Translations under genes and position numbers: made by a program
Source of the DNA: an uncultured Oscillospiraceae bacterium
GTDB taxonomy: Bacteria > Bacillota > Clostridia > Oscillospirales > Oscillospiraceae
Assembly: GCA_947624035.1 (NCBI GenBank)
Contig: CANQIH010000001.1
Coordinates: forward strand, 1 to 40,980
DNA length: 40,980 bases
Direction: 5' to 3'
Shown here: positions 7,555 to 25,372 of the stretch, in pieces
Layout of the letters: every line of letters starts with the position of its first letter
Position numbering within the stretch: the stretch's first letter is position 1
Notes under the pieces: model-generated
The model's input: only the letters and a program-made list of their open reading frames with translations
What the model was told of the DNA's origin: nothing
The model's database searches: none

Positions 7555-7600
7555 TTTAAAAGCGAGGACAGGACCCTAACGGGCCCTGTCCTCGCTTTAT
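7555..7600. terminator. Bidirectional terminator between convergent genes
   Basis: AGCGAGGACAGGACCC-TAAC-GGGCCCTGTCCTCGCT forms 16 bp with 1 mismatch. It is flanked by TTTTAAA on one side and TTTAT on the other. Confidence 0.65.
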
Positions 7601-7616: not shown

Positions 7617-10600
7617 TTATAGCATCCCCTGGGCCGTACTGATCAGCGTGGAGATGGAGTCCGCGTCCGCCACACCGGATCCAAGCAGGGTGATGGCGCT
7701 GTTTACCACCGCTGCCGCGTCAGGATTTTCCGTGTCCAGGATGGTCTTGGCCTGCTGGAGCAGTACCAGCACGCTGTCCGTGTTGGCGTCAAAGTCCGCC
7801 TCCACCAGAGCAGCAGCGGAGGTGAGCAGTCCCGCGGCGGCGCTCTGCCCCTGGCCCTCACCGGCAGGGGCCTCCGTCTCATCCCCAACGCTGGTCTCCG
7901 GCGCGGGGGAGGTCTCCTGCTCAGGGGTGGGCTCCGGCGTGGGAGCTGCCGCCTGCTCCGGGGTGGTCTCAGGCGCCGCCTCAGGCTCTGCCTGCGATTC
8001 GCTCTCAGGAGCGGACGCCTCGGGCTCCTCGCCCTCCGGCAGTTCGATCGCTCCCACGGCGACGGCCTCCTCTACGGACGCGCCGTCCACTGCATAGAGC
8101 TTGTTGGCCCCGTCGCGCATCTGCGCCACGACGAATCGACAGTCATCGGACACACCCACATCGTAGGTACCTTCCAGCAACACATTCCCGTGCCAATCCA
8201 GCAGCGAAACACCGTCGCCGTCATGTGTCTTAAAGAGCTTTCCGTTCCCCTGAGCGTACAGGGTCTCGAAGCCCTTGGTCTCCGTCCCGTCAGCCGCCAC
8301 CAGTGTATAGGTCCCGTCAGCCTCCTTGTATATTCCTGCCATGCCGTAGTTGGAGAAATCATCGCTGGGATATCTCAGTTCGCAGGTCACCTGGCCCTGG
8401 CCGTTCACATAGCCGGTCATACCGCCTTTCTCCACGGCAAAGTAACCGTTGGCCCAAACGTGGTGTTCATTGGAGATGAAACGGATCAGCACGTCGTCAT
8501 ATTCCAAGGGAACGACGACATTGCCGTTCACATCCATGACGCCATTAAGCATTGTGTCGCCATCATAGATCCGCGTGTACCCGTCCGGGAATTCATCATC
8601 AAAGATGGTGTAGCCCGTGCTGTCCTTCAGACTCTCTCTCAGGACGTACATGGAGGAATAGGCGCTAAAGTCAGACAAGTTGCGGACTGTCCCCACGGCA
8701 GTGAACGTCCCATCATAGGTAGTGACCGTGCCCGTGGTGCGGTCCCTGATGTTCAGGTAATCCCCTTCCGCAGCCGCATCATCGAACTGGTCCCGGGTGA
8801 GCTTTACCGACGTGAGTTCCGCCCCGTCGATGTGGTAGATCACAGCCTCATCGATATAATAGTAGACCAAATCCCGAATGCTGCTGTCATAGCCAGAGAA
8901 ATCGTAATCGTCCTCCGTGGCCGTATTCTGAAACCTATAGGCGACGATCCAGTTCTCATCCAGCACTGTGATCTTATCGTATTCGCATGGAATGATCTCC
9001 AGGCCCCGCTGCGAGACAACGCCGCATTTCTCCTGGCCACCCACTTCGCGATTGGCGATCAGCCAGCCTTCATCGCAGGAAAAGTAATGCAGATACACCG
9101 GCTCAGTCAGCTGCTGGCCGCTCACGTCGATGAGGGCGTAGTTGTGACCGTCATTGGTCCCAAGGAGGAGGTCGGTGCCCGATACGAACTCCCTGCCCAC
9201 TGTATCGCCGATCAGCTCCAGCTGCGGATCGCCGGTATAGGCATCCAGGGACGCTGCCTCCAAAGAAGCAGCCTCCACCTCCACGGCGCCGCCCACACTG
9301 CCGGCCAGCGCCACCGGCGACGCGCCGTTGACCAGGTAGAGCGTGGAGGATGTATAGCCGTCCTGGGCGATCAGGTAGTTGCCGTTGGCGGACAGGGAGT
9401 AACCGTCGCTGCCGGACAGGAGCACATTGCCGTGCCAATCCAGCAGGTCGTAGCTGGAATCCGATCTGCCGACCCAGAACATACCTTTGGACCCGCTTAT
9501 AGAAGACAAGTACCCATACGTGGTGCCCAGGGACTTCTCTACGCCGTCGCCGGACAGGATAGTGTACGACCCGTCCTCCCCCTTGTACTGGGCGGACATG
9601 CCATAACAGTAGACATCGGACGACGAATGGGCGAAGGCGGCTGTCACCGTGCCGCCGGCCGTGATGTAGACGAACTGGCCGTCCTTCTCCCCAGAGAAAT
9701 AGCCGCCGTTTTCATACGCAAAATCATCCATGTCGTAGTCGATCCTGTCGAACTCCGCCGGAACGATGATATTGCCATAGCGGTCCATCACGCCGTATTT
9801 ACTGGTATTCCAGTCGTAGAACTCAGCATAATTCCCGCGGAAACTATATACGCCATATCCCGTGCTGTCGGACAGCAGTTCCGAGAGCACGTCGCTCTCC
9901 TCGTAGTCGCCGAAGTCCGACATATACTCTGCGGTCCGGAGCGGTGTGAACGACGGGTCATAGGTGGTGATGACGCCGGAGCGGTCCTGGATGTTCAGGT
10001 AGTCACCGGAGGCTCGTGTGTCCCCATAGGCGTCCCGGGTGAGCGTACTCACGAGGGCAGAGTTCTCACCGTCCAGATAGTAGACGTCCGCGCTGGCGAT
10101 CTGGAAGTGGTCGCCGTCCCAGTTGTAATAGTCGTAGTCCTCTTCTGTCCCCTCCGTGAGCGTGATACCGACCGCCCACTTCTCGCTGATGACCTGAAGC
10201 TCGTTATACTGGAACGGGATGAGGATATCTCCGTTGTCCGCCAGCAGGCCGGTGCCGCTCCCGTCCGCCATCCAGGTCTGGATGTTGCCGTATTTGCCGT
10301 CAAAGCTTCTGCCGTACACCGGCTCGGTCAGCAGGTTTCCGTTCAGGTCCATCAGCGCGTACAGGCCGCTGACGTCCTGATAGGCGATGTCGTTGGTCCC
10401 GCCGATGAAGCCAGTGACCTTGACGCTGCCGGACTTCTCCAGAGTCACGTCACCTGTGAACACGTCGATGGGCTCGGCGGGGTGGTCGCCCAGCGCCACC
10501 CTGTTGGTGGCGGTGATGACTGCGTCCGCGCCCAGAACGTTGTCCTCCGTGGACAGCAGGATGCTGTTGACGTCCAGGCCCGTGTCGTCGTCCAGGGTGG

Positions 10601-11483
10601 TGAAGGTGTCCTCGATGGGGTCCTTGATGCCGGTGCTCTCCGTCACGTTGTGGGTGACACGCTCCAGCGTCCGCTGCATGTCCTTGTACTCGTAGCCCAT
10701 CTGGCTGAACTTGTAGCTGAAGTCATACAGCTTCTGGTGCTCCACTTCGCCCAGCTTGACGGGAGGCGCCTTGCCCTGGGCCGTGGCGGCCTCAGCCGCC
10801 GCCTGGTCCGTGGTGGCGATGACTTCATCCACCACCTGGTTGACGGCCTGTTGGTCCGTGATGTTGTCGCGCACGATGTGGATCTTGATGTCGTTGACTA
10901 CCAGGGTCGCCTGATCCTGGCCCACAGTATCCGCGATCTCGCCCGTGAGCACCAGCTCCTGGTTGGCCAGTTCCTTCTTCGCCGGGTCCAGTGTCTGGCC
11001 GCTGCCGGCCTCATAGGCCATCATGACGCCCGTCAGGGCGCCGGTGCCGGACACCTCATAGGGCGCGGCCGTCAGCACCTCGCAGTTGAACACACCGGAG
11101 GTGGACAGGGTCGTGGCGATCATGTTGCAGTTGACGTAGTTCATGTTCGCCGTCTTGACCTGGATGCCGCCGCTGTCCGTAAGGCGCACCAGCGCACAGC
11201 TGAGCGTGACCGTACCGATCTGCTCGTCGGATATGAGGCCGCCCAGCTGCGCACGCTCGTCCGCGTTGGTGATGGTGATGGTCTTCACCTGCGACTCCGT
11301 GACGCCAAAATACTGCGTGATATACGCCCGCTGCTCCGCCGACAGATCCGCGCCCAGCGTCAGCACGATCGTCGACTGAGCGGGTGTCGCATCGGCAGCG
11401 GCGGACGGCGCCAGGCCTGCCAGAAGAGCGCACATCAGAAGCGCCGTCAGGCAGCGTTGGATCATCCTGTTTCTCCTTTGCAT
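7617..11483 (-). CDS. Large secreted protein: signal peptide, DUF1002-like domain, two ~400-aa WG-repeat (KWG-type) blocks, P/E-rich linker, C-terminal helical module
   Basis: Signal peptide ...LLAGLAPSAAADA. LGADLSAEQRAYITQYFGV...QIGT...VSGTGALTGVMMAYE resembles YpuA/DUF1002. Repeated YGVMDRYGNIIVPAEFD, NGVMDVNGNVVVPLEYD and LLDWHGNVLL motifs are WG-repeat like. The alternative start at 11465 also has a good RBS. Confidence 0.8.
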   Translation of the reverse strand: MQRRNRMIQRCLTALLMCALLAGLAPSAAADATPAQSTIVLTLGADLSAEQRAYITQYFGVTESQVKTITITNADERAQLGGLISDEQIGTVTLSCALVRLTDSGGIQVKTANMNYVNCNMIATTLSTSGVFNCEVLTAAPYEVSGTGALTGVMMAYEAGSGQTLDPAKKELANQELVLTGEIADTVGQDQATLVVNDIKIHIVRDNITDQQAVNQVVDEVIATTDQAAAEAATAQGKAPPVKLGEVEHQKLYDFSYKFSQMGYEYKDMQRTLERVTHNVTESTGIKDPIEDTFTTLDDDTGLDVNSILLSTEDNVLGADAVITATNRVALGDHPAEPIDVFTGDVTLEKSGSVKVTGFIGGTNDIAYQDVSGLYALMDLNGNLLTEPVYGRSFDGKYGNIQTWMADGSGTGLLADNGDILIPFQYNELQVISEKWAVGITLTEGTEEDYDYYNWDGDHFQIASADVYYLDGENSALVSTLTRDAYGDTRASGDYLNIQDRSGVITTYDPSFTPLRTAEYMSDFGDYEESDVLSELLSDSTGYGVYSFRGNYAEFYDWNTSKYGVMDRYGNIIVPAEFDRIDYDMDDFAYENGGYFSGEKDGQFVYITAGGTVTAAFAHSSSDVYCYGMSAQYKGEDGSYTILSGDGVEKSLGTTYGYLSSISGSKGMFWVGRSDSSYDLLDWHGNVLLSGSDGYSLSANGNYLIAQDGYTSSTLYLVNGASPVALAGSVGGAVEVEAASLEAASLDAYTGDPQLELIGDTVGREFVSGTDLLLGTNDGHNYALIDVSGQQLTEPVYLHYFSCDEGWLIANREVGGQEKCGVVSQRGLEIIPCEYDKITVLDENWIVAYRFQNTATEDDYDFSGYDSSIRDLVYYYIDEAVIYHIDGAELTSVKLTRDQFDDAAAEGDYLNIRDRTTGTVTTYDGTFTAVGTVRNLSDFSAYSSMYVLRESLKDSTGYTIFDDEFPDGYTRIYDGDTMLNGVMDVNGNVVVPLEYDDVLIRFISNEHHVWANGYFAVEKGGMTGYVNGQGQVTCELRYPSDDFSNYGMAGIYKEADGTYTLVAADGTETKGFETLYAQGNGKLFKTHDGDGVSLLDWHGNVLLEGTYDVGVSDDCRFVVAQMRDGANKLYAVDGASVEEAVAVGAIELPEGEEPEASAPESESQAEPEAAPETTPEQAAAPTPEPTPEQETSPAPETSVGDETEAPAGEGQGQSAAAGLLTSAAALVEADFDANTDSVLVLLQQAKTILDTENPDAAAVVNSAITLLGSGVADADSISTLISTAQGML
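7855..8045 (-). repeat. Low-complexity Pro/Glu/Ala/Thr linker-coding tract
   Basis: Encodes EGEEPEASAPESESQAEPEAAPETTPEQAAAPTPEPTPEQETSPAPET.... Confidence 0.7.
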
Positions 11484-11507
11484 CGTGTTTGCCTCCTGTA
11501 TGTAAAC

Positions 11508-13136
11508 TCACAAAAAGACTCCGTTTGCGCGCACAGAGCCAAGACACTCAAAGCTGATCTCCTTGATGACGCCATACTCGCAGATGATGGACACCGCGCT
11601 GTAGTAAGGCGCGTCGTTGCGGATGAGCACATAGCCGTTGCAGCCGTCGTCCCGGACGTTGCAGGCGTACAAAAGCTCGTTGCCCCGGAAGCCGGCCACG
11701 CCGTCCAGCGGCTTTCCGGCAAACTCCGGGAAGCCCTTGAGGATGTCGCTCTCCGCGCCTCCTACCCGCACGCCGCCCGGCAGGGTGACGTCCGCATATG
11801 TGCCCTGGGTGTCGATGAGCGCCGTCAGGATGCAGTCAGACGCCGCGGCGGGTTGGCCGGTCATGTTGGTGACGCCGATCATCTCTTTGTAGGGCAAATT
11901 CTCAAAATAGTAGTACTGCGTGTTGACGATCTCCGTCCACTGTCCGTCCGCCATATCCGCGCTGCTGTGGAAGTCATAGGGGATGACAGTCTGCCGGTCC
12001 AGCCGCAGGTCCGCCTCCGCCATGTCCCTCACGGCGGTGGGAAACTGATATGTGTGTCCGTTGATCTCATAGAGGAACGTGCCCATGTCGCCCTGGGGCG
12101 TGTCCTCCGCGGCCGGGGCGGGCGTCTCCACCAACTCCGGTGTGGGCTGGGCAGTTGGTTCTGCCAGTTCAGGTGTGGGCTGGGCCGCCGGCTCTGCTTG
12201 TTCCGGCTCGGGCGTGGGCTGGGCCGTCAGCACCTCCTGGACCATCTGCTCTGTGCCGACCTCCGTACTGCCCACCACCTGCTGGTACATCGGGAAATAG
12301 TCGTAGGCCGTTTGCTGCCCCTGCATGAGCTCGATGGCGAACACTGTCTGATCATAGGCGAAGCACACCGTCTCACAGGTGAACTGGTTGGCGCCCACCA
12401 TCATGGTGAAGTCCAACCGCCGGGCGGGCAGTTCCGCCGCGGTAGCGTCCTCGGAGGCGAACGCCGTGGTCACGCTCATGTTGGCGATGTTCTTCGCGTA
12501 GCTGTCCAGCGCCTCGGCCTCGCTGCTTCCCTCCATCGGGACATAGCTGATGGTCAGCGTCCCCGCCGCCGGACTGATGGCGCCGGAGTCGTTTACCGGC
12601 GAATAGGACGTCAGTGCCCGCCCGGAGGCGTTGTTGCCCCAGCCCCCCGGCACACTCACAAGGACCGGGTCCCGCAGGACCGTCCGCACGAAGGACGCGG
12701 CCTCATAGACCGGCAGGCCCAGCTCCGAGACAGCGGCCTCTACCGCGGCGCTCACAGATGGCTGCGCCGTTGCCTGCGCGGGTGTATCCGGCACCGGGGT
12801 CTCCTGCGCCGGCGCATCCTGGGCGGCCGGCTGGCTGTCCACCACCGACCGCAGCAAAGCGGCCACCGAGGCGGCGTCCGCTGCCCCCGTATCCAGAAGG
12901 GTGATGACGCTTCTCAGCGTCGCCGCTACCGGGTCGTCCTCCTCCAGCGCGTCCACGCACTGCTGCAGCAGCAGCCGCACCGTCTCGCTGTTTGCGTCCA
13001 GATCCAGTTCTGTCAGGGCCAGCGCCGTGTTGACCTGATCCGCTATAGCGCCGCTGGCGGCCTCCGCCCTGGCAGCCGGGCCAAGGCACATGGCCGCTGC
13101 CAGCAGCGCGGCGGCAAGCCGTCTCAGTCGATTCAT
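11508..13136 (-). CDS. Secreted protein of unknown function (N-terminal helical module, PE-rich linker)
   Basis: Signal peptide MNRLRRLAAALLAAAMCLGPAARAEA. The ATG at 13136 overlaps the upstream TGA (ATGA) and has GGGGGAG upstream; the track start at 13142 is GTG. No recognisable catalytic motif. Confidence 0.75.
   Translation of the reverse strand: MNRLRRLAAALLAAAMCLGPAARAEAASGAIADQVNTALALTELDLDANSETVRLLLQQCVDALEEDDPVAATLRSVITLLDTGAADAASVAALLRSVVDSQPAAQDAPAQETPVPDTPAQATAQPSVSAAVEAAVSELGLPVYEAASFVRTVLRDPVLVSVPGGWGNNASGRALTSYSPVNDSGAISPAAGTLTISYVPMEGSSEAEALDSYAKNIANMSVTTAFASEDATAAELPARRLDFTMMVGANQFTCETVCFAYDQTVFAIELMQGQQTAYDYFPMYQQVVGSTEVGTEQMVQEVLTAQPTPEPEQAEPAAQPTPELAEPTAQPTPELVETPAPAAEDTPQGDMGTFLYEINGHTYQFPTAVRDMAEADLRLDRQTVIPYDFHSSADMADGQWTEIVNTQYYYFENLPYKEMIGVTNMTGQPAAASDCILTALIDTQGTYADVTLPGGVRVGGAESDILKGFPEFAGKPLDGVAGFRGNELLYACNVRDDGCNGYVLIRNDAPYYSAVSIICEYGVIKEISFECLGSVRANGVFL
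12108..12232 (-). repeat. Tandem repeat of about 36 nt encoding AQPTPE(L/P).. units
   Basis: Encodes AQPTPEPEQAEPAAQPTPELAEPTAQPTPELVETPAPAAE. Confidence 0.7.
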
Positions 13137-14419
13137 TGCCACACTCCCCCATAGCTCTCAAGCGCCGTGGGCGCCAGGGCGAACACGGCCGGGTCGGGAT
13201 CGCCTGTGCCGTCCTCCTCCAGCCGGATATGCACGCTCTCGCCCACAAGCGAGAACTGATACATCCAGTCCTTCGTCTGGTAGGTATACTCGTCCCCCGG
13301 CACGAAGTGGCGGATCCGGTCGGTGGAAACCAGGAACAGGTAGTGGTCGATGAGGTCCCGGTAGACCGGGTCCTCCAGCGCCTCCATGAAGTAGCTGTAG
13401 CCGTTCATGGCCGGGTCCAGGCTGTTCTCCAGGCTGTCCTGATCGTCCCAGGTGGTGTCCACCTCATACCACGCCCCGTCCATCTTCACCAGGCTCCAGG
13501 CGTGGCGGCCCATATCCTCCGGCGAGGCCCCGGCCATGCCGCCGATGAAGGCGGTATCGATGCCGCACTGCTGCAAAAGATACTCGAAGGCCAGGGAGTA
13601 CCCGTCGCACACCGCGTAATTGGGGTTTCCGGCGGAGTCCGTCACCAGTGCGCCGTAGGCGGTGTGGGCCAGGTCCTGCCCAGTCCTGAAAATGCTCAGG
13701 TCCTCCGCCACCGGATCGTCGTAGTCCACGAGCCCGATGAGCTTGTCGTGGACCTGGCGAATGGTCTCGTATTCCGAGATGCTCGTGTCTATGTCCGCGA
13801 GAAAGGCGTCAGCCGCCGCGTTGAAGGCCGTCATCTGGGGCACGAAATTCTCGAATGGCTCCATCATCATGAAGTAGACGAAGTAAAAGCCGTTTTGAAC
13901 CACCGCCTCGGAGGAGAAGCACATATCGGCCTCCTCCCGGGAGTACAGCCAGAACAGCTCCGGGTGGTCAAAGCAGATCGACCGGTATGCCAGCTCGAAC
14001 TCGTAGTAGAATTCGTCGCCCTGCGGGTCCATATCCGTCATCATGAGGCCGATGTTACCGGGGCTCACCGGGTCCTTCGCCACGCCGTACATCACGTCGT
14101 ATATCTGTTTGGCGATGGGGTCCAGGTTGTTGTAATAGTAATAGTTCTCCGCCCGGTTGACCAGCAGGCTGTCCTCCTGGGGCGTGTAGGCGGCCATTTG
14201 GGCGTTCAGGTCCTGGGCCTCCGAGGCGGTCAGCATCTCCATGGGCTGAGAGGGCGTGCGGACGGCCATGTCGCCGGTGGGCATGACGATGCCGCCGGTC
14301 TCCAGCTCATTCGCCGCCTCCGCCGCCGCAGGCGGGAACATGAGCGCAGCCGTCAAAAGGCACAGGACGCACTGGACCGCCAGTCTCCTTCTCACATCCA
14401 TCCGCTCCTTCCTCTTCAT
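13133..14419 (-). CDS. Exported transglutaminase-like cysteine-protease-fold protein
   Basis: MKRKERMDVRRRLAVQCVLCLLTAALMFPPAAAEA is a signal peptide. AVCDGYSLAFEYLLQQCGIDTAF...GRHAWSLVKMDGAWYEVDTTWDD gives a Cys...His...Asp core. Start set to the ATG at 14419, 7 nt after the kinase stop; the track extension to 14527 would overlap the kinase gene. Confidence 0.8.
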   Translation of the reverse strand: MKRKERMDVRRRLAVQCVLCLLTAALMFPPAAAEAANELETGGIVMPTGDMAVRTPSQPMEMLTASEAQDLNAQMAAYTPQEDSLLVNRAENYYYYNNLDPIAKQIYDVMYGVAKDPVSPGNIGLMMTDMDPQGDEFYYEFELAYRSICFDHPELFWLYSREEADMCFSSEAVVQNGFYFVYFMMMEPFENFVPQMTAFNAAADAFLADIDTSISEYETIRQVHDKLIGLVDYDDPVAEDLSIFRTGQDLAHTAYGALVTDSAGNPNYAVCDGYSLAFEYLLQQCGIDTAFIGGMAGASPEDMGRHAWSLVKMDGAWYEVDTTWDDQDSLENSLDPAMNGYSYFMEALEDPVYRDLIDHYLFLVSTDRIRHFVPGDEYTYQTKDWMYQFSLVGESVHIRLEEDGTGDPDPAVFALAPTALESYGGVWQ

Positions 14420-14426
14420 CCCGCTG

Positions 14427-16277
14427 TCACTGCAGCGCCCACACGGCGGAGATGACCACGTCGTTGGCTGGCATGGTGAAGGTGAACTCGTCCTCCTCCA
14501 CGACGCCCTGCACACCGGGCAGACCAAACGCCGTCCAGCCCGAAAAGCTCTTGCCGGCGGTCACCGGCTCGTGGGTGACGGTGACGATATCGCCCGCCGC
14601 GAAATAGCCGCTGCTGCCGCCCGTGGCAAGTATGCCGCCGTTGACCTGCACGCTGTATCCCGTCACCGGCTCCGGCGTGGGCGTCGCGGGTTCAGGCGTG
14701 ACCACGGGCTCCGGCGTAGGCGCCGCGGGCTCCGGGGTGATCACAGGCTCCGGCGTTGCTGCCGCGGGCTCCTGTGTATCCGCCGCAGGCTCCGGTGTGG
14801 CATCCAAGGCTGCATAGACCGCCGCCATGACCACATCCTCAGCCGGCATGGTGAAGCGCACGGTCTGGGCTGTCAGCTCTGCCTCCTCCAGGCCCGGATC
14901 CCCGCTGACGATCATCCAATGCGTGAACTGCGCAGAGCCGTCGTCCTCAGACCCACGGTCCGCCGTCACCTCCACCGTCTGCCCCGCCGCGTAGCGCCCG
15001 TCCCCGGTGCCGTTGCTGACGGTCAGCATGTACTGCACGGCCGTACCGGCCGTATCATCCGCACCCTTCCCAGGGAGCAGCACTACCGCCAGAACGGCAC
15101 AGAGCAAGACAGCTGCGGCGATCAGGAGCAGCTTTTTCCCGCCGCCCTTTTTTGTCTTTCCGGCGGCAGGCGGCGCCCCGCGGTCCCCGGTCTCTTTGTC
15201 CGGCACAGACCCGTCCGCGGCCGGTCCCGGGTCCGGGACCTTCTCTTGCTGGTGTGCGGGCCGTCTCTCGTCCAGGACGGTCTTGTCCTCCGCCGCGCCC
15301 ATCTCCGGCTGTTTGGGTATGACCACGGTCTTGTCCGGGTCCTCGGCCCGGGGCAGCACTTCCGAAGCCGCGGGGCGGCAGCGCTCCAGGTCCCGGAGCA
15401 GCTCCGAGGCGTTCTGATACCGGTCCTCCGGGCGGAAGGCACACATCTTCAGTACGACCTGCCCCAGCTCCGGTGACACCAGCGCCGGCATTGGCAGCGG
15501 CGTCTCTCCCGAAAGCCGCTCTGTGAGGGCCCTCTCCCGGTCCGCGGCGGTATAGGCGTCCGTCGGGTAGAAGGGCAGCCGGTTGCGGTTGAGGGCCTTA
15601 TACAGCACCAGACCGAGGGAATAGATATCCGCCGTGCCGTCATACCGCACGCCCCGATGGACCTCCGGCGCCATATAGTTTTCCGTGCCCTTGATGGATA
15701 GCTCGCCGGAGCTGCTGTCATAGGCCCGCGCGATGCCAAAGTCGCCAAGCTTATAGCCGCCGAATTGATTGACGAAGATATTGCCCGGCTTGATATCCCG
15801 GTGGATGATGCTCTTCTCCTCAAAGAGCGCCAGGGCCTTCGCCAGCTCCACGCCCAGCCGGTGCACGTCCGCCTCCGTGGCGCCGTGTTCCCGCTGGTGC
15901 TCCAAGAGCGGCGTCAGCAGCTCCATGCGGATAAGCACGTACCACTGCATGGCGTCCGGCTCCTTGATGACCTTATAGTCCTCGCAGCTCACGATATAGG
16001 GAAAGCCCTTCATGGAGACCATGATCTTGATCTCGTCGATCAGGCTGTCGACCACGCTCTGGAAATAGGCCGTGACGGAGCGCTCGTCCATGCCCTCGGC
16101 CCGCAGCGTCGATACAGTCGATGGGTCCTGCGGCACACGCACCACCTTCAGCGCCGACGTGAGAGAGACGCTTTGGTCGTTTTTCCGTATCTCAAAGACC
16201 TCGCCGCTGGCGCCGCGGCCGAGCCGGCGGACGATCCGCCAGTCGTCAAATACTAAGCTGCCGTTCTGAAAATCCAT
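14427..16277 (-). CDS. Receptor Ser/Thr protein kinase with extracellular Listeria-Bacteroides-repeat-like domains (STK-3)
   Basis: Hanks motifs GRGASGEV, ALKVV, HRDIKPGNIF, GDFGIARA and GTENYMAPE. One TM (LLLIAAAVLLCAVLAVVLL). Two ~70-aa beta-rich repeats separated by a TPEP linker. RBS is AGGAGAAGG. Confidence 0.9.
   Translation of the reverse strand: MDFQNGSLVFDDWRIVRRLGRGASGEVFEIRKNDQSVSLTSALKVVRVPQDPSTVSTLRAEGMDERSVTAYFQSVVDSLIDEIKIMVSMKGFPYIVSCEDYKVIKEPDAMQWYVLIRMELLTPLLEHQREHGATEADVHRLGVELAKALALFEEKSIIHRDIKPGNIFVNQFGGYKLGDFGIARAYDSSSGELSIKGTENYMAPEVHRGVRYDGTADIYSLGLVLYKALNRNRLPFYPTDAYTAADRERALTERLSGETPLPMPALVSPELGQVVLKMCAFRPEDRYQNASELLRDLERCRPAASEVLPRAEDPDKTVVIPKQPEMGAAEDKTVLDERRPAHQQEKVPDPGPAADGSVPDKETGDRGAPPAAGKTKKGGGKKLLLIAAAVLLCAVLAVVLLPGKGADDTAGTAVQYMLTVSNGTGDGRYAAGQTVEVTADRGSEDDGSAQFTHWMIVSGDPGLEEAELTAQTVRFTMPAEDVVMAAVYAALDATPEPAADTQEPAAATPEPVITPEPAAPTPEPVVTPEPATPTPEPVTGYSVQVNGGILATGGSSGYFAAGDIVTVTHEPVTAGKSFSGWTAFGLPGVQGVVEEDEFTFTMPANDVVISAVWALQ
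14658..14800 (-). repeat. Tandem TPEP-type repeat-coding tract
   Basis: Encodes TPEPAADTQEPAAATPEPVITPEPAAPTPEPVVTPEPATPTPEPV. Confidence 0.7.
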
Positions 16278-16326
16278 AAAGTCCTTCTCCTGGTCGGAAG
16301 CGTGGCGGCGCTATGGCCGCCCGCCG

Positions 16327-18750
16327 TCACTTGCTGAGTACGCAGTCCACCACGCGCAGCATGAGTTTTCCGTACACGGCCACCCGCAGGCGGCTGACCC
16401 CGGTGAGGTCCACCGAGAACTCCTGGGGCTCGCAGCCCGCGCCGATGAGCGGGGACTGATACAGCAGCGCCCCGTCGCCGTATATCCACAGGTACACGTT
16501 GTCCACCGACTTATTGGCCGCCGCGCTGTCCAGGACCACCCGGCCCGTCAGCTTTGTATATTCACGGTCCAGCCAGTATTCCTGCCAGGACTCCCCTTCT
16601 GGATACTTGCCGCCGAAGCCGGTCTCGTAGTAGTTGCCCATGTTGTCCGTGACGCCGTCATAGACGATGAACGCGCCGTCGTACCGGGAACCGCTGAGCC
16701 AGTCCATATCGCTGAGGAGGATCTGCGGCTCCGTGCTCCGGGGCGCCTCTACGGCGGAGGACAAAGTGGGCGACGCCGCGCTCTCATAGAGCGCGCAGTC
16801 CACAAGGCGGATCATGTTCTTCCCCTGGATGACGATCCGCAGCGTGGTGACGCCGGACACGTCTATCACGAAGTCCATGGGCTCGCATCCGGCCACCACG
16901 GCCTGGGTGCGGTACAGCAGCGCCCCGTCGCCGTAGACCCAGAGAAAGATGTCATTGTTTACCTGGGCCCGGGCGCTGTATTCCAGCACCACCCTGCCCC
17001 GCAGCTCGGCGTAGGTCCCGTCCAGCGTATACTCCTGCCAGGACTGCCCCTCCACCGCCGGCATGTTCTTCTCGTCGGACCGGGAGGCGGTGCCGCCCAG
17101 GCCGTTGTCATAGGTGGTGCCAAAGTTGTCCTTGACTGAATCGTAGTACAAAAAGCCGTCCGGCGACGAATCCGAGCAGGGCAGGTCCTTCAGATACACA
17201 TACTTTGCCTCCGCCTGCGCCATCGCGGCCTCGTACTCTGCCTCCTTGCTCTGGAGCGAGGCAGAATCGGGATGGTCCTCCAGGCCGGCCCGGATGATGA
17301 TGAGCGCGCCCGCATAATCGCCGGCCGACGCCAGCGCTTCCGCCTGCACGATGATCCTGGCTGCCTGCTCCGCCTCGGAGAGCTCCGGCTCCGGCGTGGC
17401 CGCCGGCTCCGGTGTGGCCGCCGGTTCCGGCGTGATCTCCGGTTCCAGCGTGGCCGCCGGTTCCGGCGTGATCTCCGGTTCCGGCGTGGCCGCCGGTTCG
17501 GGCGTGGCCTCCGGTTCCTGCGCTGTCTCTGGCTCCTGCGTGGCCTCGGGCTCCGCGGCCGTCTGGGCGGACGGGCCGTCCGGCTCCCCGCCAAATAGCT
17601 TCGACCCGGCGAACGCGCCGCCCGCGAGCAGCAGGACCGCCGCCAGGACAGCGGCGATCACAACCGGCATCCGGTTCTTCCTGGCGGGGACCTGCTTTGG
17701 TTCCTCCGGCGCCGGTCTCAGGGTCCCCGAGACCTCCGGAGCCGCCGCGGGCGGCGGCGTTTCCACTCCGACCTCGGGCGGCGCAGCCCGCCTGCCCAGA
17801 GGCTCGGTCCTGCTCCCGCTGTCATACAGGAACACCGTCCGGTCGCCAATCATCTGCAGCGCTTGGCGCATCTCCGTGGCGGTGGCGTAGCGCTCGTTGG
17901 GGTCGTAGGCGCAGGCACGCAGGATGACCCCGGCCAAGTCACGGGAGGCGTTGCTCGGCGGCGGCAGCCGCTCACCGCGTATGCGCCGCTCCTGTGCCTC
18001 CTGTCTCGCGCTGGGACTGAGAAGCTGGGCCTCCGTTTCCAAAAACGGCAGCCGGTTCCCGTTCATGAGCCGGTACAGCATGATGCCCAGCGAGTAGATA
18101 TCGGCCCGGGCGTCATAGACTGTTCCGTTCATGACCTCCGGCGCCATGAAGGTCAGGGTTCCCTTCTGAGACATGGCCCCCGTCATATTCTCCAGACGGC
18201 GGGCGATGCCGAAGTCGCCCAGCTTGAAATCGCCGAAGTCATTGACGAAGATGTTCTCAGGCTTGATATCCCGGTGGATGATATTGCGCTTGCCGCAGAA
18301 CTCCAGAGCCGTGCAGATATCGCAGCCCAGCTTTATGACGTCCTCTTCCGTCAGCTCCCGGTCGCGCACATAGGTGTTGAAGGGCGTGAGAAGCTCCATG
18401 CGGATATAGATATCCCATCCGATCTCCCCGCTCTTCTCCACGACCTTGTAGTCTTCCACGCTGACGATGTTCTGGATGCCCTTCAGCGAATCCATCAGAT
18501 CGATCTCTTTGACGAAGTCGTCCACGACCCCGCGGAGATAGGTCCGGCTGGCACGCATATCCAGGCCCTCCGATCGCAGGGAATCGATCTCCGACTGGTC
18601 CGAGGGGATGGAGATGACCTTGATGGCGGCCCGGGTCTCCAGGTTGTGATCCCGGCGCACCGCCTGATAGACCACGCCGTAGGAGCCCCGGCCCAGCTGC
18701 TTTTCGATCTGCCACTCGGGCCAGATGCCGCTCAGCACGTTCTGCTCCAT
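16327..18750 (-). CDS. Receptor Ser/Thr protein kinase with tandem extracellular NPCBM-like domains (STK-2)
   Basis: GRGSYGVV, AIKVI, HRDIKPENIF, GDFGIARR and GTLTFMAPE. TM MPVVIAAVLAAVLLLAGGAFA, a PEP linker, a helical segment, then two ~140-aa paralogous domains. The ATG at 18750 lies 2 nt after the PP2C stop (TGAGGATG). Confidence 0.9.
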   Translation of the reverse strand: MEQNVLSGIWPEWQIEKQLGRGSYGVVYQAVRRDHNLETRAAIKVISIPSDQSEIDSLRSEGLDMRASRTYLRGVVDDFVKEIDLMDSLKGIQNIVSVEDYKVVEKSGEIGWDIYIRMELLTPFNTYVRDRELTEEDVIKLGCDICTALEFCGKRNIIHRDIKPENIFVNDFGDFKLGDFGIARRLENMTGAMSQKGTLTFMAPEVMNGTVYDARADIYSLGIMLYRLMNGNRLPFLETEAQLLSPSARQEAQERRIRGERLPPPSNASRDLAGVILRACAYDPNERYATATEMRQALQMIGDRTVFLYDSGSRTEPLGRRAAPPEVGVETPPPAAAPEVSGTLRPAPEEPKQVPARKNRMPVVIAAVLAAVLLLAGGAFAGSKLFGGEPDGPSAQTAAEPEATQEPETAQEPEATPEPAATPEPEITPEPAATLEPEITPEPAATPEPAATPEPELSEAEQAARIIVQAEALASAGDYAGALIIIRAGLEDHPDSASLQSKEAEYEAAMAQAEAKYVYLKDLPCSDSSPDGFLYYDSVKDNFGTTYDNGLGGTASRSDEKNMPAVEGQSWQEYTLDGTYAELRGRVVLEYSARAQVNNDIFLWVYGDGALLYRTQAVVAGCEPMDFVIDVSGVTTLRIVIQGKNMIRLVDCALYESAASPTLSSAVEAPRSTEPQILLSDMDWLSGSRYDGAFIVYDGVTDNMGNYYETGFGGKYPEGESWQEYWLDREYTKLTGRVVLDSAAANKSVDNVYLWIYGDGALLYQSPLIGAGCEPQEFSVDLTGVSRLRVAVYGKLMLRVVDCVLSK
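17384..17565 (-). repeat. 18-nt tandem repeat (about 10 copies) encoding (A/E)(A/I)TPEP units
   Basis: GGCTCCGGCGTGGCCGCC-like units. Encodes EPEATQEPETAQEPEATPEPAATPEPEITPEPAATLEPEITPEPAATPEPAATPEPE. Confidence 0.8.
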
Positions 18751-18752
18751 CC

Positions 18753-19541
18753 TCACGCTTCCCCTCTGTTCCGTCTCCAGAGCCGGCTCAGGGACCATCC
18801 GCCGCTGCGGCTGATACGGCAGGCCACGATGGTGGTGTTGTCATGTCCGCCGTTGGCCAGGGCCATCTCCAGAAGCCTCTCCGTGACGCCGTCAAAGGGG
18901 GTGCTGTCTATCACGCCGCGGATCTCATCCTGCGTGACCATATCCGTGAGGCCGTCCGAGCAGATGAGGTACACGTCGCCGTCCCTGTACCCGCCGCTGG
19001 CGATATACGGATCGATGATCATCTCGTCTGGCTCGATCCCCAGGCATTGGGACAGCGGGGCCTTTCTTCCGAAGGGCGCCAGGCCCAGGTGGTCCATCGA
19101 CAGCTGCTCCAGCTTTCCCTTGGAAAAGCGGAACACCTTGCTGTCCCCGATGTTGCACCACATGGCTCCCTTCTCCATGAAGGCGACCATCGCCACCGTG
19201 CTCCCGATGGAGCTGATGGCGTTGTCTCTGGCGTACTGGCAGACAGCCTCGTTGGCATCCTGGCAGAACTGGCGCAGGCTGGCGGCCGGGTCGTCCCCCA
19301 CCGTGATGGCCGCGGCCTTCTCCGCCGCGATGGCGGAGGCCACATCCCCGTCCACGCCGCCGCCCACGCCGTCGAACACGCCGAAGACGGAGGGTTCCTC
19401 TGTCGTGACGCTGCCGGACAGCGCGAAGGGAAGCGTGTCCTCCTTCGTGATATACCTGCCGCCGCAGAGGAGGTTATCCTGGTTCACCCTGCGCACAAGG
19501 CCCTTGTGGCTGACGCAGGAATAAAATATCTTACACTCCAT
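18753..19541 (-). CDS. PP2C-family Ser/Thr phosphatase (PP2C-2)
   Basis: FGVFDGVGGGVDGDVAS, ICSDGLTDMV and GGHDNTTIVA motifs. Start set at the ATG at 19541 (MECKIFYSCVSHKG). Confidence 0.88.
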   Translation of the reverse strand: MECKIFYSCVSHKGLVRRVNQDNLLCGGRYITKEDTLPFALSGSVTTEEPSVFGVFDGVGGGVDGDVASAIAAEKAAAITVGDDPAASLRQFCQDANEAVCQYARDNAISSIGSTVAMVAFMEKGAMWCNIGDSKVFRFSKGKLEQLSMDHLGLAPFGRKAPLSQCLGIEPDEMIIDPYIASGGYRDGDVYLICSDGLTDMVTQDEIRGVIDSTPFDGVTERLLEMALANGGHDNTTIVACRISRSGGWSLSRLWRRNRGEA

Positions 19542-19755
19542 AATGTTCCCATTCCGGCACGTGCCCGCCAAGAGGACTGTGCCCATGCGTTATAAAATGA
19601 GCTTGTCAAAAAACACGTATACGCTTGGATGATGCAGGGGGAGCTTGAGGGGGGCGGAGTCCCGCCTCAAATGGGATAAAAAGCCGGCAAATGCCATTTG
19701 CGCCGCGCAGCGGCAGTATTTCATGACGGCTTTGACGGCAGGAAATACTCGGCTT

Positions 19756-19823
19756 TCAGGCTGTCAAAGACCCTTCTTTGACAGCCTGATAAAATGCCGG
19801 GAGACCGCCTAAGTGTCTCCCGG
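19756..19823 (-). terminator. Tandem terminator after the vWA-FHA gene
   Basis: Minus strand reads CCGGGAGAC, a 9-nt loop, GTCTCCCGG, then CATTTTA, immediately followed by a perfect 15-bp hairpin TCAGGCTGTCAAAGA-AGGG-TCTTTGACAGCCTGA. Confidence 0.6.
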
Positions 19824-19830
19824 CGGGTGG

Positions 19831-21738
19831 TCAAATGTACTCCGGCGCGCTGAAATCGAATTCCAGCGTGGTCGTGCCTATCACGGCGCAGTCGCCGCAT
19901 ACCAGCTGGCGCGGCTCGTCCGCATTGAGGCGCTCGCCGTTCAGCCGTGTGCCGTTGGTGGAATTCATGTCGGCGATGAACAGTCCCTCGCCGTCGAAGA
20001 TCAGCTTCATGTGCTTTCTGGATATGGCCTTGTCGTCCACCACCACGTTCGCGACGGAATTGCGGCCGAAGGTCAGCTCCTCGCCGGGCTTCATGACCAG
20101 CCTGCGCGGCTCATGGGGCGTCCGGTCAGAGACGCGCTCCGTCACCACGACGGCCAGGACGCGCTGCTGCTTGAATGTGCCGTCCTCCTGCTGCCCCTCC
20201 CGGTCCAGAAGCACCGTTTTGTCATCGTCCACAGAGCCCAGGAAGGCGGTGCGGTCGTTGTCGTCCTCTATAGCGCCCGCAGCGCCCATGGCGCCCAGGA
20301 AAGCGGTCCTGTCGCTGTCACCGCCGCCCGCAGGGCTATCCGTGCGGAAGCCGGTGGTGCCCGGACGGTCGCGGAAACTGTAGGTCCTCTCAAGGCCGTC
20401 GTTGACGAAATCGTCGGACGCCGCGCCGTTCATGGCGCCGCCGGCGGCGTACTGGTTCACCCTGTTGGCGGGCCCGTCATACATCGTCGGCTCATCCGAG
20501 TACGGGTCCACATGGGAGATCGTGGGGTCGCCGCTCTCCTGGGGAGCGGTCTGGGCGCCCTTGTCCCCGGATCTCTTCTTCTTGCGTGTGACGGCAAAGA
20601 TCACCACGGCCACGACGACCAGCAGCGCGGCGCCTCCCGCGGCCAGCTGCCATACCGCGAACCCGGACGACTCCTCCTCTTCAGGCTCCGGCGCCTCTGT
20701 CACAGGGGGCGCCGTGGCGGCGGCTGGCGGCGGCGTCACCTTCGGACGGGCCGTCTGTTCCGGCGTAGGCGTCGCGGCCTCCTCGGGGCCGGGGATACTC
20801 GTCCAGTTGACGATCTGCATCAGCTCGTTGCTGGGGGGGATGAAACCCCGCTCCGACTGGAAGCCCACCTGGAACTTGCTGGGCTCATTGAAACCGGTCT
20901 TGCCCTCCGGGTTGGTCATGGTGGCGTGCAGCTCCACGGCGCCGCAGACGATGGCGTATATCGTGTCCAGGCTGCCGCCGATGGCGCTGGCGGGGCCGTT
21001 GAAATCCTTGCCGCCTGTGGCGTCGGCCAGCTCCCGGAGGCTGGCCTCGTTGACGCCGTCGTTGTCATTGAGGCCGATGCAGTACAGGGGCACCTGGGCC
21101 GACTGGATCTGGGCGAAGATATCCTCCTTCGTGGGGGAAGCGCTGTTATCCGGCAGGTCGTTTTTGCCGTCCGTGATGACGATGACAGCGCTCCGATCCC
21201 CGGTAGCCGCCTTGGCGCCGCGGATCACGCCCTCATAGAGGGCAGTATACCACTGGTCCGCCACGATGCCGTTGATCGTGTCCTGGATCTGCTGCTTGTT
21301 CCCGCTCTCCGGAAGAAGTTCCGTGACTGTCTCGCCGAAGGTGATGATGGTCACCGTGTCGTTGGGCCCCATCTGGTCCACGAAGGCGCACAGGGACGAG
21401 CGGACGCTCTGCATCATCGTATCGATCATCGTGCGGGACACGTCCACCACGAACACGTAGTGGATGCCCTGCGTCGCGGGGTCGTATGACTGCACGCTGT
21501 CCACATTGGCCCCCACGCCATCCACAGATACGGCGAACTGTTCAGCTGTGAAAGAACCCGTGACCGGAAATCCGCTGCTGTCGTACAGGTTCACATACAT
21601 TGTGAGGGCAGGACCGTTCTGCTGGACCTGATTGAGAATGACGTCGCTCACCTGCCGCCCCGAGGCATAGACGCCCTGGGTCAGCAGCAGGACCGCCAAA
21701 ATGCAGATCACGCCTGTCTTTACGATGCGTTTCATCAT
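19831..21738 (-). CDS. Bitopic protein: signal peptide, exported vWA domain, TM, cytoplasmic FHA domain
   Basis: MMKRIVKTGVICILAVLLLTQGVYA. vWA with a MIDAS-like motif VFVVDVSRTM...TALYEG...VIVITDGKND. TM FAVWQLAAGGAALLVVVAVVIFAV followed by KKKR. C-terminal FHA reads LTFGRNS...ISRKHMKL...STNGTRLNG. RBS GAAGGGGA precedes the ATGATG at 21738. Confidence 0.88.
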   Translation of the reverse strand: MMKRIVKTGVICILAVLLLTQGVYASGRQVSDVILNQVQQNGPALTMYVNLYDSSGFPVTGSFTAEQFAVSVDGVGANVDSVQSYDPATQGIHYVFVVDVSRTMIDTMMQSVRSSLCAFVDQMGPNDTVTIITFGETVTELLPESGNKQQIQDTINGIVADQWYTALYEGVIRGAKAATGDRSAVIVITDGKNDLPDNSASPTKEDIFAQIQSAQVPLYCIGLNDNDGVNEASLRELADATGGKDFNGPASAIGGSLDTIYAIVCGAVELHATMTNPEGKTGFNEPSKFQVGFQSERGFIPPSNELMQIVNWTSIPGPEEAATPTPEQTARPKVTPPPAAATAPPVTEAPEPEEEESSGFAVWQLAAGGAALLVVVAVVIFAVTRKKKRSGDKGAQTAPQESGDPTISHVDPYSDEPTMYDGPANRVNQYAAGGAMNGAASDDFVNDGLERTYSFRDRPGTTGFRTDSPAGGGDSDRTAFLGAMGAAGAIEDDNDRTAFLGSVDDDKTVLLDREGQQEDGTFKQQRVLAVVVTERVSDRTPHEPRRLVMKPGEELTFGRNSVANVVVDDKAISRKHMKLIFDGEGLFIADMNSTNGTRLNGERLNADEPRQLVCGDCAVIGTTTLEFDFSAPEYI

Positions 21739-21914: not shown

Positions 21915-22178
21915 TCACTCATCCAGATGGCTCAGCTGCTCCAGGTATGCCAGACCTTCGCCGTCCTGCATGCCGACGAAATACAGCCGCTCGATCTGCT
22001 CGGTGTCAAAGAGGAACAGACGGTCCGGGTCGATGATCCCCTCAGGATACAGGCACGCGCTGTAATCCCAGACCTTGTCGGAATCCACCTGCTTTTGCTT
22101 CACACCGACGATCATGATCCGCTTCTGGCTGTCCTTCAGCAGCACCACAGAGCCGATCGGCAGATACCTCTTCTTCAT
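21915..22178 (-). CDS. DUF4176-like protein (T7SSb-associated accessory family)
   Basis: MKKRYLPIGSVVLLKDSQKRIMIVG...WDYSACLYPEGIIDPDRLFLFDTEQIERLYFVGMQDGE matches the DUF4176 pattern (LPIGSVV.L......(M/I)I.G....DY....YPEG......F....I). Confidence 0.7.
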   Translation of the reverse strand: MKKRYLPIGSVVLLKDSQKRIMIVGVKQKQVDSDKVWDYSACLYPEGIIDPDRLFLFDTEQIERLYFVGMQDGEGLAYLEQLSHLDE

Positions 22179-22195
22179 ATGACGTCCATCCTTTC

Positions 22196-22447
22196 CTATT
22201 TGGCCAATTCTTCCAATGTATACTCCCGCCCGCAGCTCTGGCAGGTAAAAAAGTACAGGTAGTGCTTCACCTGGGCGTTTGGGATGAACAGGGCGTCGCT
22301 GCCCGTGTTGAGCTGCTCGCCCTTGACGCTCTCAAAGCCCTTCCGCTTCACCAGCTGGCCCCCGCAGCGGGGGCAGCGCTTTTTCCCGAACAGGAGGTAC
22401 CGCAGCTCACTTGGCGTAAAGTCATACTGAAATCCCTTATGCTCCAT
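22196..22447 (-). CDS. Small zinc-ribbon protein (CPRC...CQSC), candidate immunity or accessory factor
   Basis: MEHKGFQYDFTPSELRYLLFGKKRCPRCGG...FFTCQSCGREY. It lies directly downstream of the candidate toxin. Function is inferred only. Confidence 0.6.
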   Translation of the reverse strand: MEHKGFQYDFTPSELRYLLFGKKRCPRCGGQLVKRKGFESVKGEQLNTGSDALFIPNAQVKHYLYFFTCQSCGREYTLEELAK

Positions 22448-22460
22448 GGCCCACACCAGC

Positions 22461-23603: not shown

Positions 23604-23650
23604 CGTGTGTCCTCCTGTCGTCGCCCAGCCGCCGGCGCTTGGCCCGGCCG

Positions 23651-23950: not shown

Positions 23951-23970
23951 GCCGGTCCCCTCTTTCCTGG

Positions 23971-24001: not shown

Positions 24002-24010
24002 CGGTCATGT

Positions 24011-24856: not shown

Positions 24857-24898
24857 GCTTGTTCCTCCTTCGGATTACTCCTGTTGTTCATTCTTCCT

Positions 24899-25360: not shown

Positions 25361-25372
25361 ACGAACCTCCAG

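Follow-up and report, generated by a model that had tools for sequence, protein, structure and literature searches.

A receptor-kinase, phosphatase and exported vWA-FHA gene cluster as a probable regulatory arm of a clostridial type VII secretion locus

Gene content and organization of the cluster

The first 40,980 nucleotides of contig CANQIH010000001.1, from an uncultured Oscillospiraceae bacterium (assembly GCA_947624035.1), were analysed and are referred to below as the window, which has a G+C content of about 63% and carries the majority of its genes on the minus strand. The subject of this work is a group of seven minus-strand genes at positions 7617-21738, located beside genes of a type VII secretion system (T7SS) and coding for a membrane-spanning protein with a vWA and an FHA domain (vWA-FHA), a PP2C phosphatase, two receptor Ser/Thr kinases (STKs) and three Sec-exported proteins, one of them resembling transglutaminases (TGases). 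An earlier note, made from the sequence alone, had described these genes, and a Pfam scan recovered all seven at the same positions and on the same strand, with the same domains. They are listed here in the order of transcription, together with the flanking hairpins; module B is the second of two modules distinguished further below.

19831-21738, minus strand: bitopic vWA-FHA protein with a signal peptide, a VWA_2 domain (Pfam, 1.9e-12), a transmembrane (TM) segment and an FHA domain (Pfam, 1.1e-14)
19742-19830, minus strand: tandem hairpin pair, a predicted terminator between vWA-FHA and PP2C-2 (-21.8 and -25.5 kcal/mol)
18753-19586, minus strand: PP2C-2, a PPM-family Ser/Thr phosphatase (Pfam PP2C_2, 1.8e-9), with its true start probably at 19541
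16327-18798, minus strand: STK-2, a receptor Hanks kinase (Pkinase 5e-45, TM, two NPCBM domains 4e-19), with its true start probably at 18750
14427-16277, minus strand: STK-3, a receptor Hanks kinase and first gene of module B (Pkinase 7e-36, TM, two Flg_new_2 domains 1e-14)
13133-14419, minus strand: Sec-exported TGase-like protein of module B (Sec signal, and a weak Pfam match to Transglut_core at 23.4 bits)
11508-13136, minus strand: Sec-exported protein of 542 aa, module B, with no family match
7617-11483, minus strand: Sec-exported giant of 1288 aa, module B (DUF1002 1e-54, and WG_beta_rep)
7556-7600, minus strand: operon-end hairpin with a U-tract (-36.9 kcal/mol, z -9.7)

From PP2C-2 to the giant the genes are tightly spaced, as had been described: PP2C-2 and STK-2 are 2 nt apart or overlap, depending on the choice of start codon, and are followed by gaps of 49 nt (STK-2/STK-3) and 7 nt (STK-3/TGase-like), a 4-nt overlap between the TGase-like and 542-aa genes, and a gap of 24 nt before the giant. 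Two strong hairpins lie directly 3′ of the vWA-FHA stop codon, the first (z -5.1) followed by UUUUAU and the second with a z of -6.1, and a very strong one closes the giant gene. The vWA-FHA gene had been called monocistronic and bounded by terminators. This fits the hairpins at its 3′ end, whereas the two hairpins upstream of it carry U-tracts and fold weakly (z -1.5 and -1.3). As the number of terminators across the region was no higher than chance (11 vs 7.0 ± 2.7 expected), and as only 30-100 nt separate vWA-FHA from the next gene in relatives, its transcription as a single gene is a plausible prediction for this genome only. Neither an Rfam nor a tRNA scan of the whole window gave a match.

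The vWA-FHA protein

The vWA-FHA protein begins with a signal peptide, followed by an ectodomain formed by a beta-sandwich and a vWA domain with a metal-ion-dependent adhesion site (MIDAS), a TM helix, a disordered linker of about 130 aa and a canonical FHA domain. In an alignment of 30 homologues, the MIDAS residues D99, S101, T165 and D190 and the FHA residues R559 and N595 were invariant, and S573 and H576 were preserved in at least 90%. The AlphaFold2 (AF2) model placed the ectodomain at residues 30-315 and the FHA domain at 526-632, both at a predicted local distance difference test score (pLDDT) above 90, with a TM helix at 362-389 and residues 390-520 modelled as a disordered linker (pLDDT 30-40). 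The signal peptide, the TM helix and this model confirm the topology first proposed, in which the vWA domain is exported and the FHA domain is held in the cytoplasm. In Foldseek searches, the ectodomain matched vWA proteins that act outside the cell as receptors or adhesins, namely ITIH1 and the anthrax-toxin receptors, and its best matches also included archaeal ArnB and ArnAB (8s05, 5a8j); the FHA domain matched FhaA of M. tuberculosis (3po8) with a template modelling score (TM-score) of 0.80.

The majority of homologues are 900-1000 aa long, with the vWA domain set apart from the TM helix by three additional beta-repeats. The window protein represents a short form. When 1.84 billion representative proteins were searched with a vWA-FHA profile, 1,231 matches were obtained at E ≤ 1e-30, and among 134 new top matches both domains were found in 112 and a TM helix between them in 101. 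Few of the matches are named ('FHA domain-containing protein [Clostridia bacterium]' or 'Mg-chelatase subunit ChlD'), so this family of exported-vWA/TM/FHA proteins is large and uncharacterised. A metagenome scan with the same profile added a single true relative (locus L044; related loci are numbered with the prefix L), the rest being unrelated soil and water vWA or FHA proteins, and loci L015-L034, which came from a genome scan, were left out as single-domain matches from Paraburkholderia, Nitrosospira and Actinomycetota.

Kinases and phosphatase

STK-2 is composed of a kinase domain, a juxtamembrane segment with the sequence DRTVFL, a TM helix, a linker rich in Pro, Glu and Thr, a helical region and two NPCBM domains of carbohydrate-binding type, and STK-3 of a kinase domain, a juxtamembrane segment with DKTVVI and DKTVLD, a TM helix and two Flg_new_2 domains, which resemble InlB B-repeats. 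The TM helices and the domains beyond them bear out the description of both enzymes as receptor-type kinases with extracellular domains. The ectodomains of orthologous kinases differ from locus to locus (NPCBM, Flg_new_2, LRR, Big_2, Big_6, PG_binding and DUF285). An insert of about 25 residues between the beta3 Lys and helix alphaC is found in STK-2, STK-3 and all kinases adjoining vWA-FHA elsewhere, and is missing from STK-1, a further kinase of the window.

Motif conservation indicates that kinase and phosphatase chemistry is intact. The glycine loop, catalytic Lys, HRD, Asn, DFG and APE motifs are all preserved in STK-2 and STK-3, and the PPM metal-binding motifs NQD, DGVGG, GDS, DG and DN can be read in the PP2C-2 translation. 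Several of the kinase orthologues encoded beside long-form vWA-FHA proteins are non-RD. A PP2C at the equivalent position adjoins the kinase in eight related loci, with 24-27% identity over 75-88% of PP2C-2, and these phosphatases are about as similar to PP2C-1, the other phosphatase of the window, as to PP2C-2. In the long-form loci L006, L008, L009, L012 and L014, the PP2C has a TM segment at its C-terminus.

Candidate phospho-acceptor sites

The pattern D[RK]T[AV][FVL][LID] occurs six times in the roughly 13,000 residues of the window proteins, and the six copies are placed in the juxtamembrane segments of STK-2 (one) and STK-3 (two) and in the vWA-FHA linker (three, all reading D[RK]T[AV][FL]L). 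Every vWA-FHA homologue carries two to four aligned linker repeats, which read 'GT[VM]R[LI][DE]' in long forms and '[DE][KA]T[AV][FY]L' in short forms, and both types present a Thr with a hydrophobic residue at +3, the usual preference of FHA domains. Across the linkers, T..[LIVMF] was counted 107 times vs 50.6 expected from composition-preserving shuffles, a figure inflated by the definition of the motif after inspection of the sequences.

Linkage to the secretion locus

Transcribed ahead of the seven genes, also from the minus strand, are a second phospho-signalling set, the T7SS ATPase EssC and a block of secretion genes, in the order PP2C-1, STK-1, a protein with a peptidoglycan (PG)-binding domain, EssC, LytTR, a protein of about 168 aa and YukD, and then six WXG100-type proteins with interleaved small helical proteins, a 380-aa effector-like protein, a Zn-ribbon protein and DUF4176 (21915-22178).

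35122-35901, minus strand: PP2C-1 (Pfam)
34146-35102, minus strand: STK-1, a soluble kinase (Pfam)
32754-34091, minus strand: protein with a PG-binding domain, three TM helices and an FHA domain (Pfam)
27976-32733, minus strand: EssC ATPase with an N-terminal FHA domain (Pfam; NCBIfam T7_EssCb_Firm)
27220-27969, minus strand: LytTR DNA-binding protein with an atypical N-terminal half, after EssC
21915-27223, minus strand: T7SS substrate and accessory block with YukD, six WXG100-type proteins, small helical proteins, the 380-aa effector-like, Zn-ribbon and DUF4176 proteins and the conserved protein of about 168 aa (Pfam and synteny)

EssC scored above the T7_EssCb_Firm equivalog cutoff (919.7 vs 778.4 bits), and its FHA pocket is preserved (GR, S..H and S.NG..N), GR, S.NG and N being kept in at least 90% of 114 clade members. 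The phosphothreonine-binding residues are therefore conserved in the FHA domains of both the cluster and EssC, which speaks for the reader role that the earlier note gave to them; the outside-in mechanism to which it joined that role is retained here as a proposal.

The suggested linkage of vWA-FHA to essC and to PP2C and STK genes was found in two surveys. In the survey anchored on vWA-FHA, which was confined to loci having 5 kb or more of DNA upstream, T7SS genes (EssC at 53-80% identity, LytTR, YukD, WXG100, DUF4176) lay immediately upstream in nine of nine independent loci (L001, L003, L004, L008, L009, L011, L012, L014 and L044), and a PP2C together with a kinase of STK-2/3 type lay downstream in eight, L001 having the kinase only. 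The named carriers were Oscillospiraceae, Christensenellales-like and other Clostridia metagenome-assembled genomes, apparently mostly from rabbit and chicken gut. The less biased survey was anchored on EssC and covered five loci, L035-L039, with EssC identities of 56, 51, 44, 42 and 39%. A protein with both vWA and FHA domains, in some cases with LRR or Big_6 inserts in the ectodomain, was present in four of the five, a PP2C lay within range in four, and an STK-2/3-type kinase in three, L036 ending at the relevant side. FHA proteins were again encoded upstream of EssC in L035, L036 and L037, and the most distant locus, L038, had FHA proteins and no vWA. Gene order differed among these loci: the operons of L035 and L036 are divergent, and in L037, which is of Lawsonibacter type, the kinase gene precedes EssC. 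The linkage thus survives rearrangement. The cluster does not merely adjoin a T7SS, as had been supposed; it belongs to the T7SS locus that is conserved in this clade.

The long-form loci add a protein similar to TsxI, known from other T7SS variants, with a Sec signal, MBG/Ig repeats and a C-terminal TM segment, whose gene lies between vWA-FHA and PP2C in L003 (with an MBG_2 match), L005, L006, L008, L009, L011 and L012. Examples are L003:12927-17285, L006:7733-12235, L009:12845-16513 and L012:12907-17007. These proteins end in a conserved cytoplasmic tail, 'KLLD..SR.SNRTIR', whose invariant Thr is a possible kinase target. Some long-form vWA-FHA genes are also closely preceded by genes for secreted giants (1,400-2,000 aa) that have a conserved 'YY.LY..F' motif at the C-terminus (L008:5634-9833, L009:3527-9568, L011:4568-9475, L012:2911-8364 and L036:1862-7897), and RCC1/WD40 membrane propellers are often encoded beside giants (L006, L012, L036), as well as in L037, which has no such giant.

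A composite of two separate modules

The genes from PP2C-2 to the giant had been read as one tightly coupled series, a view that synteny around the TGase-like gene replaces with two evolutionarily separate modules. Judged from gene neighbourhoods, module A (vWA-FHA, PP2C-2 and STK-2) belongs to the LytTR-bearing T7SS clade, and module B (STK-3 and the TGase-like, 542-aa and DUF1002/WG proteins) is a separate, portable and conserved cassette. The three exported proteins had no counterpart in any vWA-anchored locus at E ≤ 1e-5, and in the EssC-anchored loci the sole match to the TGase-like protein was a partial one, to a Transglut_core+LRR_5 protein of L035 (40% identity over residues 240-326, E 3e-11). 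Their absence from the vWA-anchored loci had suggested passenger genes, an explanation rejected when look-ups anchored on the TGase-like protein found a conserved cassette. This protein has 344 homologues, the best being 58-71% identical, and the trio of TGase-like, 5xx-aa and DUF1002-WG proteins is syntenic and in the same order in L040-L043, at 46-72% identity for the 542-aa protein and 49-57% for the giant. In L042 and L043, the trio directly follows a Flg_new_2 kinase that is 39% identical to STK-3 over its full length, an FHA-EssC only 30% identical to that of the window, four small helical proteins and YukD. STK-3 and the trio thus constitute a portable cassette found beside two unrelated EssC systems. 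The arrangement at L042:1059-16891, which is alike in L043 with a middle protein of 583 aa, has 386 member sequences, is common in metagenomes and may represent an undescribed T7SS arrangement.

The TGase-like protein, from a fold family with a Cys-His-Asp triad, matched PDB entry 9crn (E 2.4e-13) and an NCBIfam transglutaminase-related family (5.6e-19), while the 542-aa protein had no Pfam, NCBIfam or PDB match. The giant consists of DUF1002, two all-beta WG modules of about 400 aa each, an acidic Pro-rich linker and a C-terminal helical module. Its two WG modules are duplicates (36% identical, E 1e-63). A PDB sequence search with the giant was empty, and the Foldseek matches of its AF2 model (pLDDT 68) were all beta-propellers (BamB, WD40, LRP6; E about 1e-8), at TM-scores of just 0.2-0.3. 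A literature search on DUF1002 and WG repeats returned nothing relevant. DUF1002 includes YpuA of B. subtilis, a protein induced by cell-envelope stress. In addition, the giant at its C-terminus (7620-7830, minus strand) and the 542-aa protein at its N-terminus (about 12850-13050, minus strand) have in common a helical module of about 65 aa with a conserved 'LLQ[QG]' (E 2e-9). It is retained in both proteins of L041 and L042, and might serve for pairing or as a substrate site for a transglutaminase.

Comparison with known systems

By gene content, the known systems closest to the cluster are the T7SS variants with kinases, phosphatases and FHA proteins, especially T7SSe/j and the LytR-bearing T7SSi, together with the Esr system; the earlier note had named neither. 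The variants T7SSc-j were defined from RefSeq, several of them carrying kinases, PPM phosphatases and FHA proteins, and phosphothreonine control similar to that of type VI secretion systems (T6SSs) was proposed for those bearing FHA domains (Garrett, Higginson & Palmer 2024, PMC11217815). The window shares with T7SSe/j-like systems an FHA-EssC with a phosphothreonine motif (TsxC), a YukD-like protein (TsxB), WXG100 proteins (TsxA), membrane kinases with an extracellular C-terminus (STK-2 and STK-3, TsxD-like), a PPM phosphatase (PP2C-2, TsxF-like) and separate FHA proteins, and it shares a LytTR regulator with T7SSi. TsxI-like proteins (Sec signal, Ig-like repeats, C-terminal TM), a type likened to EsaA in PMC11217815, occur in the loci of relatives and are absent from the window. 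Moreover, no DUF6382 match was found in the scanned proteins, unlike TsxJ (DUF6382-FHA), the FHA proteins of the window being the vWA-TM-FHA and PG-binding-3TM-FHA proteins instead, and the window differs from T7SSc-j by its two kinase/phosphatase sets per locus and its transglutaminase/DUF1002-WG cassette. The only vWA protein described in PMC11217815, TscE, is cytoplasmic and belongs to the FHA-less T7SSc, and no exported vWA-TM-FHA protein is described there. Oscillospiraceae, Lawsonibacter, Flavonifractor, Oscillibacter and Intestinimonas did not appear in its text or in the supplementary files searched, some of them truncated, a weak negative since the search of those files also missed Vallitalea, which is covered.

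The actinobacterial Esr (epibiont sensing and response) system was experimentally demonstrated to control Esx expression and, for Esr2, the secretion of a substrate subset at the post-translational level (Wang et al. 2026 preprint, PMC13622651). In it, an exported sensor with a propeller at its tip and a transglutaminase that serves as anchor are combined with a MoxR-vWA pair, a kinase and a phosphatase, and the FHA protein is phosphorylated within a disordered region; the system was reported to be effectively confined to Actinomycetes (PMC13622651). At the level of architecture, the window has in common with it a Ser/Thr kinase, a phosphatase, a vWA domain, an FHA output protein with phospho-Thr (here candidate residues) in a disordered region, a Sec-exported surface sensor (here a candidate), an exported transglutaminase (EsrD; domain-level evidence), frequent adjacency to esx/T7SS genes and diversified sensor domains. 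The terminal beta-propeller of EsrA may have a counterpart in the all-beta giant, with the model scores given above, and relatives carry RCC1/WD40 proteins. The differences are that a single bitopic protein carries both vWA and FHA, the former on the outside of the cell, that the sensor candidates are WG-repeat/DUF1002, NPCBM and Flg_new_2 domains rather than an Ig-filament with WD40, and that the host belongs to Bacillota. By analogy, the window would reproduce most of the Esr logic in Bacillota, without MoxR.

The cluster resembles the PpkA-PppA-Fha1 threonine phosphorylation pathway of T6SSs in combining a membrane Hanks kinase, part of which lies outside the cytoplasm, with an opposing PP2C and an FHA protein that has a phosphothreonine pocket; in the T6SS pathway, this FHA protein triggers the assembly of the secretion machine by reading phosphothreonine. 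The extracytoplasmic domain of P. aeruginosa PpkA is itself a vWA domain, whereas in the window the vWA domain is carried by the FHA protein and not by the kinase, and the secretion system and the envelope are different. No T6SS families were matched in the neighbourhood, where EssC, YukD and WXG100 are T7SS components, so that this likeness is one of analogy and not of membership. In archaea, ArnA (FHA) and ArnB (vWA) form a kinase/phosphatase-controlled switch for a surface machine; they differ from the vWA-FHA protein in being separate cytoplasmic proteins that regulate archaellum expression, whereas the window protein spans the membrane and has its vWA domain on the outside, joined to FHA within one chain.

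In TerY-P modules, noted near WXG100/FtsK operons, the kinase ends in a Zn-ribbon or an OB fold (PMC11090510, summarising Anantharaman 2012; Gao 2020). Their vWA, PP2C and Ser/Thr kinase domains co-occur in the window as well, and a PP2C gene again lies near the vWA gene, yet strong hairpins separate the two. The TerY vWA protein is cytoplasmic and part of a compact three-gene unit in a defence or tellurite-resistance context, neither of which applies to the window. PADLOC gave no match for vWA-FHA or PP2C-2 and matched the kinases to generic kinase models only (PD-T4-6, mad6), which makes a defence reading of the kinases uninformative.

A threonine-phosphorylation switch and its alternatives

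The gene content, topology, residue conservation and conserved linkage observed at the locus argue that the cluster is probably the sensory and regulatory arm of a clostridial (Oscillospirales) T7SS, a threonine-phosphorylation switch, comparable to the PpkA-PppA-Fha1 and Esr pathways, that would gate secretion on an extracellular cue. Beyond sequence, topology and synteny, we infer which protein is phosphorylated by which kinase, the kind of cue and how secretion would respond. STK-2 and STK-3 would detect the cue through interchangeable glycan- or protein-binding ectodomains and phosphorylate conserved T-x-x-L threonines, both those of their juxtamembrane segments and those of the disordered vWA-FHA linker. 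The FHA domains, with the vWA-FHA adaptor, the PG-binding/TM/FHA protein and EssC as candidates, would then bind these phosphothreonines and so assemble or activate the secretion machine, and the PP2C would reset the switch. The exported vWA/MIDAS domain would provide a second extracellular contact, with a ligand or surface partners, and module B would act as a portable surface-sensor cassette in which the TGase-like enzyme may play towards the beta-rich giant the role that EsrD plays towards EsrA, as an anchoring or processing enzyme.

Several observations weigh against this regulatory reading. The T-x-x-L motif was set post hoc, after the sequences had been viewed, and these sequences are related and not independent; moreover, the D[RK]T..L motif is not universal, being unseen in the long-form kinase juxtamembrane segments that were inspected, which are short. 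The vWA-anchored survey is biased towards linked loci, and the EssC-anchored sample covers only five. Esr includes a MoxR ATPase, and no protein of MoxR/AAA_3 type turned up either in the window proteins scanned or in the genes listed for related loci. As for module B, the propeller-like look of the WG blades comes from a moderate-confidence model with low TM-scores, and in L040 and L041 the trio has no T7SS or kinase within 10 kb, so that its tie to secretion is not obligatory.

Alternatively, the cluster could consist mainly of structural T7SS parts that replace EssA, EssB and EsaA, its membrane proteins serving as scaffolds constitutively bound to the EssC FHA domain and the kinases, as does the EssB pseudokinase in T7SSb, with little or no regulatory role for phosphorylation. 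Other membrane partners are indeed needed, since no match to EssA, EssB/YukC or EsaA was found among the scanned window proteins; vWA-FHA is kept in the locus like a core gene, and relatives carry TsxI-like proteins, the type compared with EsaA. The preservation of all catalytic residues in the kinases, with an active-looking PP2C always nearby, is however unexpected for a pseudokinase scaffold, the phosphothreonine pockets of the FHA domains are conserved, and the kinase ectodomains have been swapped between lineages, as sensors would be. A purely structural role is for these reasons unlikely, and the regulatory switch is preferred to it.

Rather less probable still, the cluster could serve general Ser/Thr signalling at the cell envelope, in growth, wall homeostasis or adhesion, and stand beside the T7SS without controlling it, its exported proteins being ordinary surface proteins. 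This would suit the sugar-transport and Mur ligase genes that adjoin the trio in L040 and L041 and the placement of YpuA in DUF1002, as well as the strong hairpins that part vWA-FHA from PP2C-2 in this genome. The linkage of vWA-FHA, PP2C and kinase genes to essC outlasts rearrangement down to 42% EssC identity, though, the trio with its Flg_new_2 kinase also brackets the unrelated EssC/YukD cluster of L042 and L043, and the kinases have no PASTA domains. Finally, a TerY-P-like anti-phage or stress triad, a kinship raised by the earlier note from the three matching domain types and compatible with the reported WXG100/FtsK neighbourhood, is highly improbable and was rejected as a class assignment, as the vWA domain lies behind a signal peptide and is fused to FHA, the kinases carry TM segments and ectodomains in place of a C-terminal Zn-ribbon or OB fold, the genes do not form a three-gene operon, and PADLOC matched neither vWA-FHA nor PP2C-2.

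If the cluster is such a threonine-phosphorylation switch, a broader and more tentative proposal, which we hold to be possible and somewhat doubtful, is that gut Clostridia own a contact- or threat-sensing T7SS pathway that is the Bacillota counterpart of Esr. The bitopic vWA-FHA protein would replace the MoxR-vWA pair and EsrG and couple binding outside directly to phosphothreonine-dependent EssC assembly, and the swappable kinase ectodomains and the TGase-anchored WG sensor would set the target (competitor, epibiont or host glycan). The switching-on of Gram-positive T7SSs is little understood, and post-translational control was shown only lately, in Actinobacteria. In this context, the locus yields a sequence-defined hypothesis for abundant gut Clostridia, with named kinases, a phosphatase, three putative phosphothreonine readers and specific candidate threonines, and brings out both the large unannotated exported-vWA/TM/FHA family and the portable transglutaminase/WG cassette beside two unrelated EssC systems. 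If true, threat- or contact-gated secretion would extend from T6SSs and actinobacterial Esx systems to commensal Firmicutes.

Further features of the locus

The second phospho-signalling set, placed upstream of EssC, consists of PP2C-1, STK-1 and the PG-binding/3TM/FHA protein. STK-1 is soluble and carries CRD and DLG in place of HRD and DFG. The LytTR protein (27220-27969) has an N-terminal half without a Response_reg match and no histidine kinase nearby; it follows EssC in 9 of the 11 related loci that cover this position, is absent from the Lawsonibacter-type L037, and may be a transcriptional output of the Ser/Thr kinases.

Among the T7SS substrates, the 380-aa protein (22461-23603, minus strand) has about 100-150 N-terminal residues that are conserved in most related loci, the remainder being variable, and L009 and L012 match it over nearly its full length. 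Its gene is followed by the Zn-ribbon and DUF4176 genes, a pattern of polymorphic T7SS effectors with accessory or immunity genes. At the opposite end of the cluster, a second transglutaminase-core protein is encoded at 4945-7548 on the plus strand (867 aa, no signal peptide, Transglut_core 2.8e-22), unrelated to the protein encoded at 13133-14419; its gene converges on the operon end, and the terminator hairpin at 7556-7600 is common to both.

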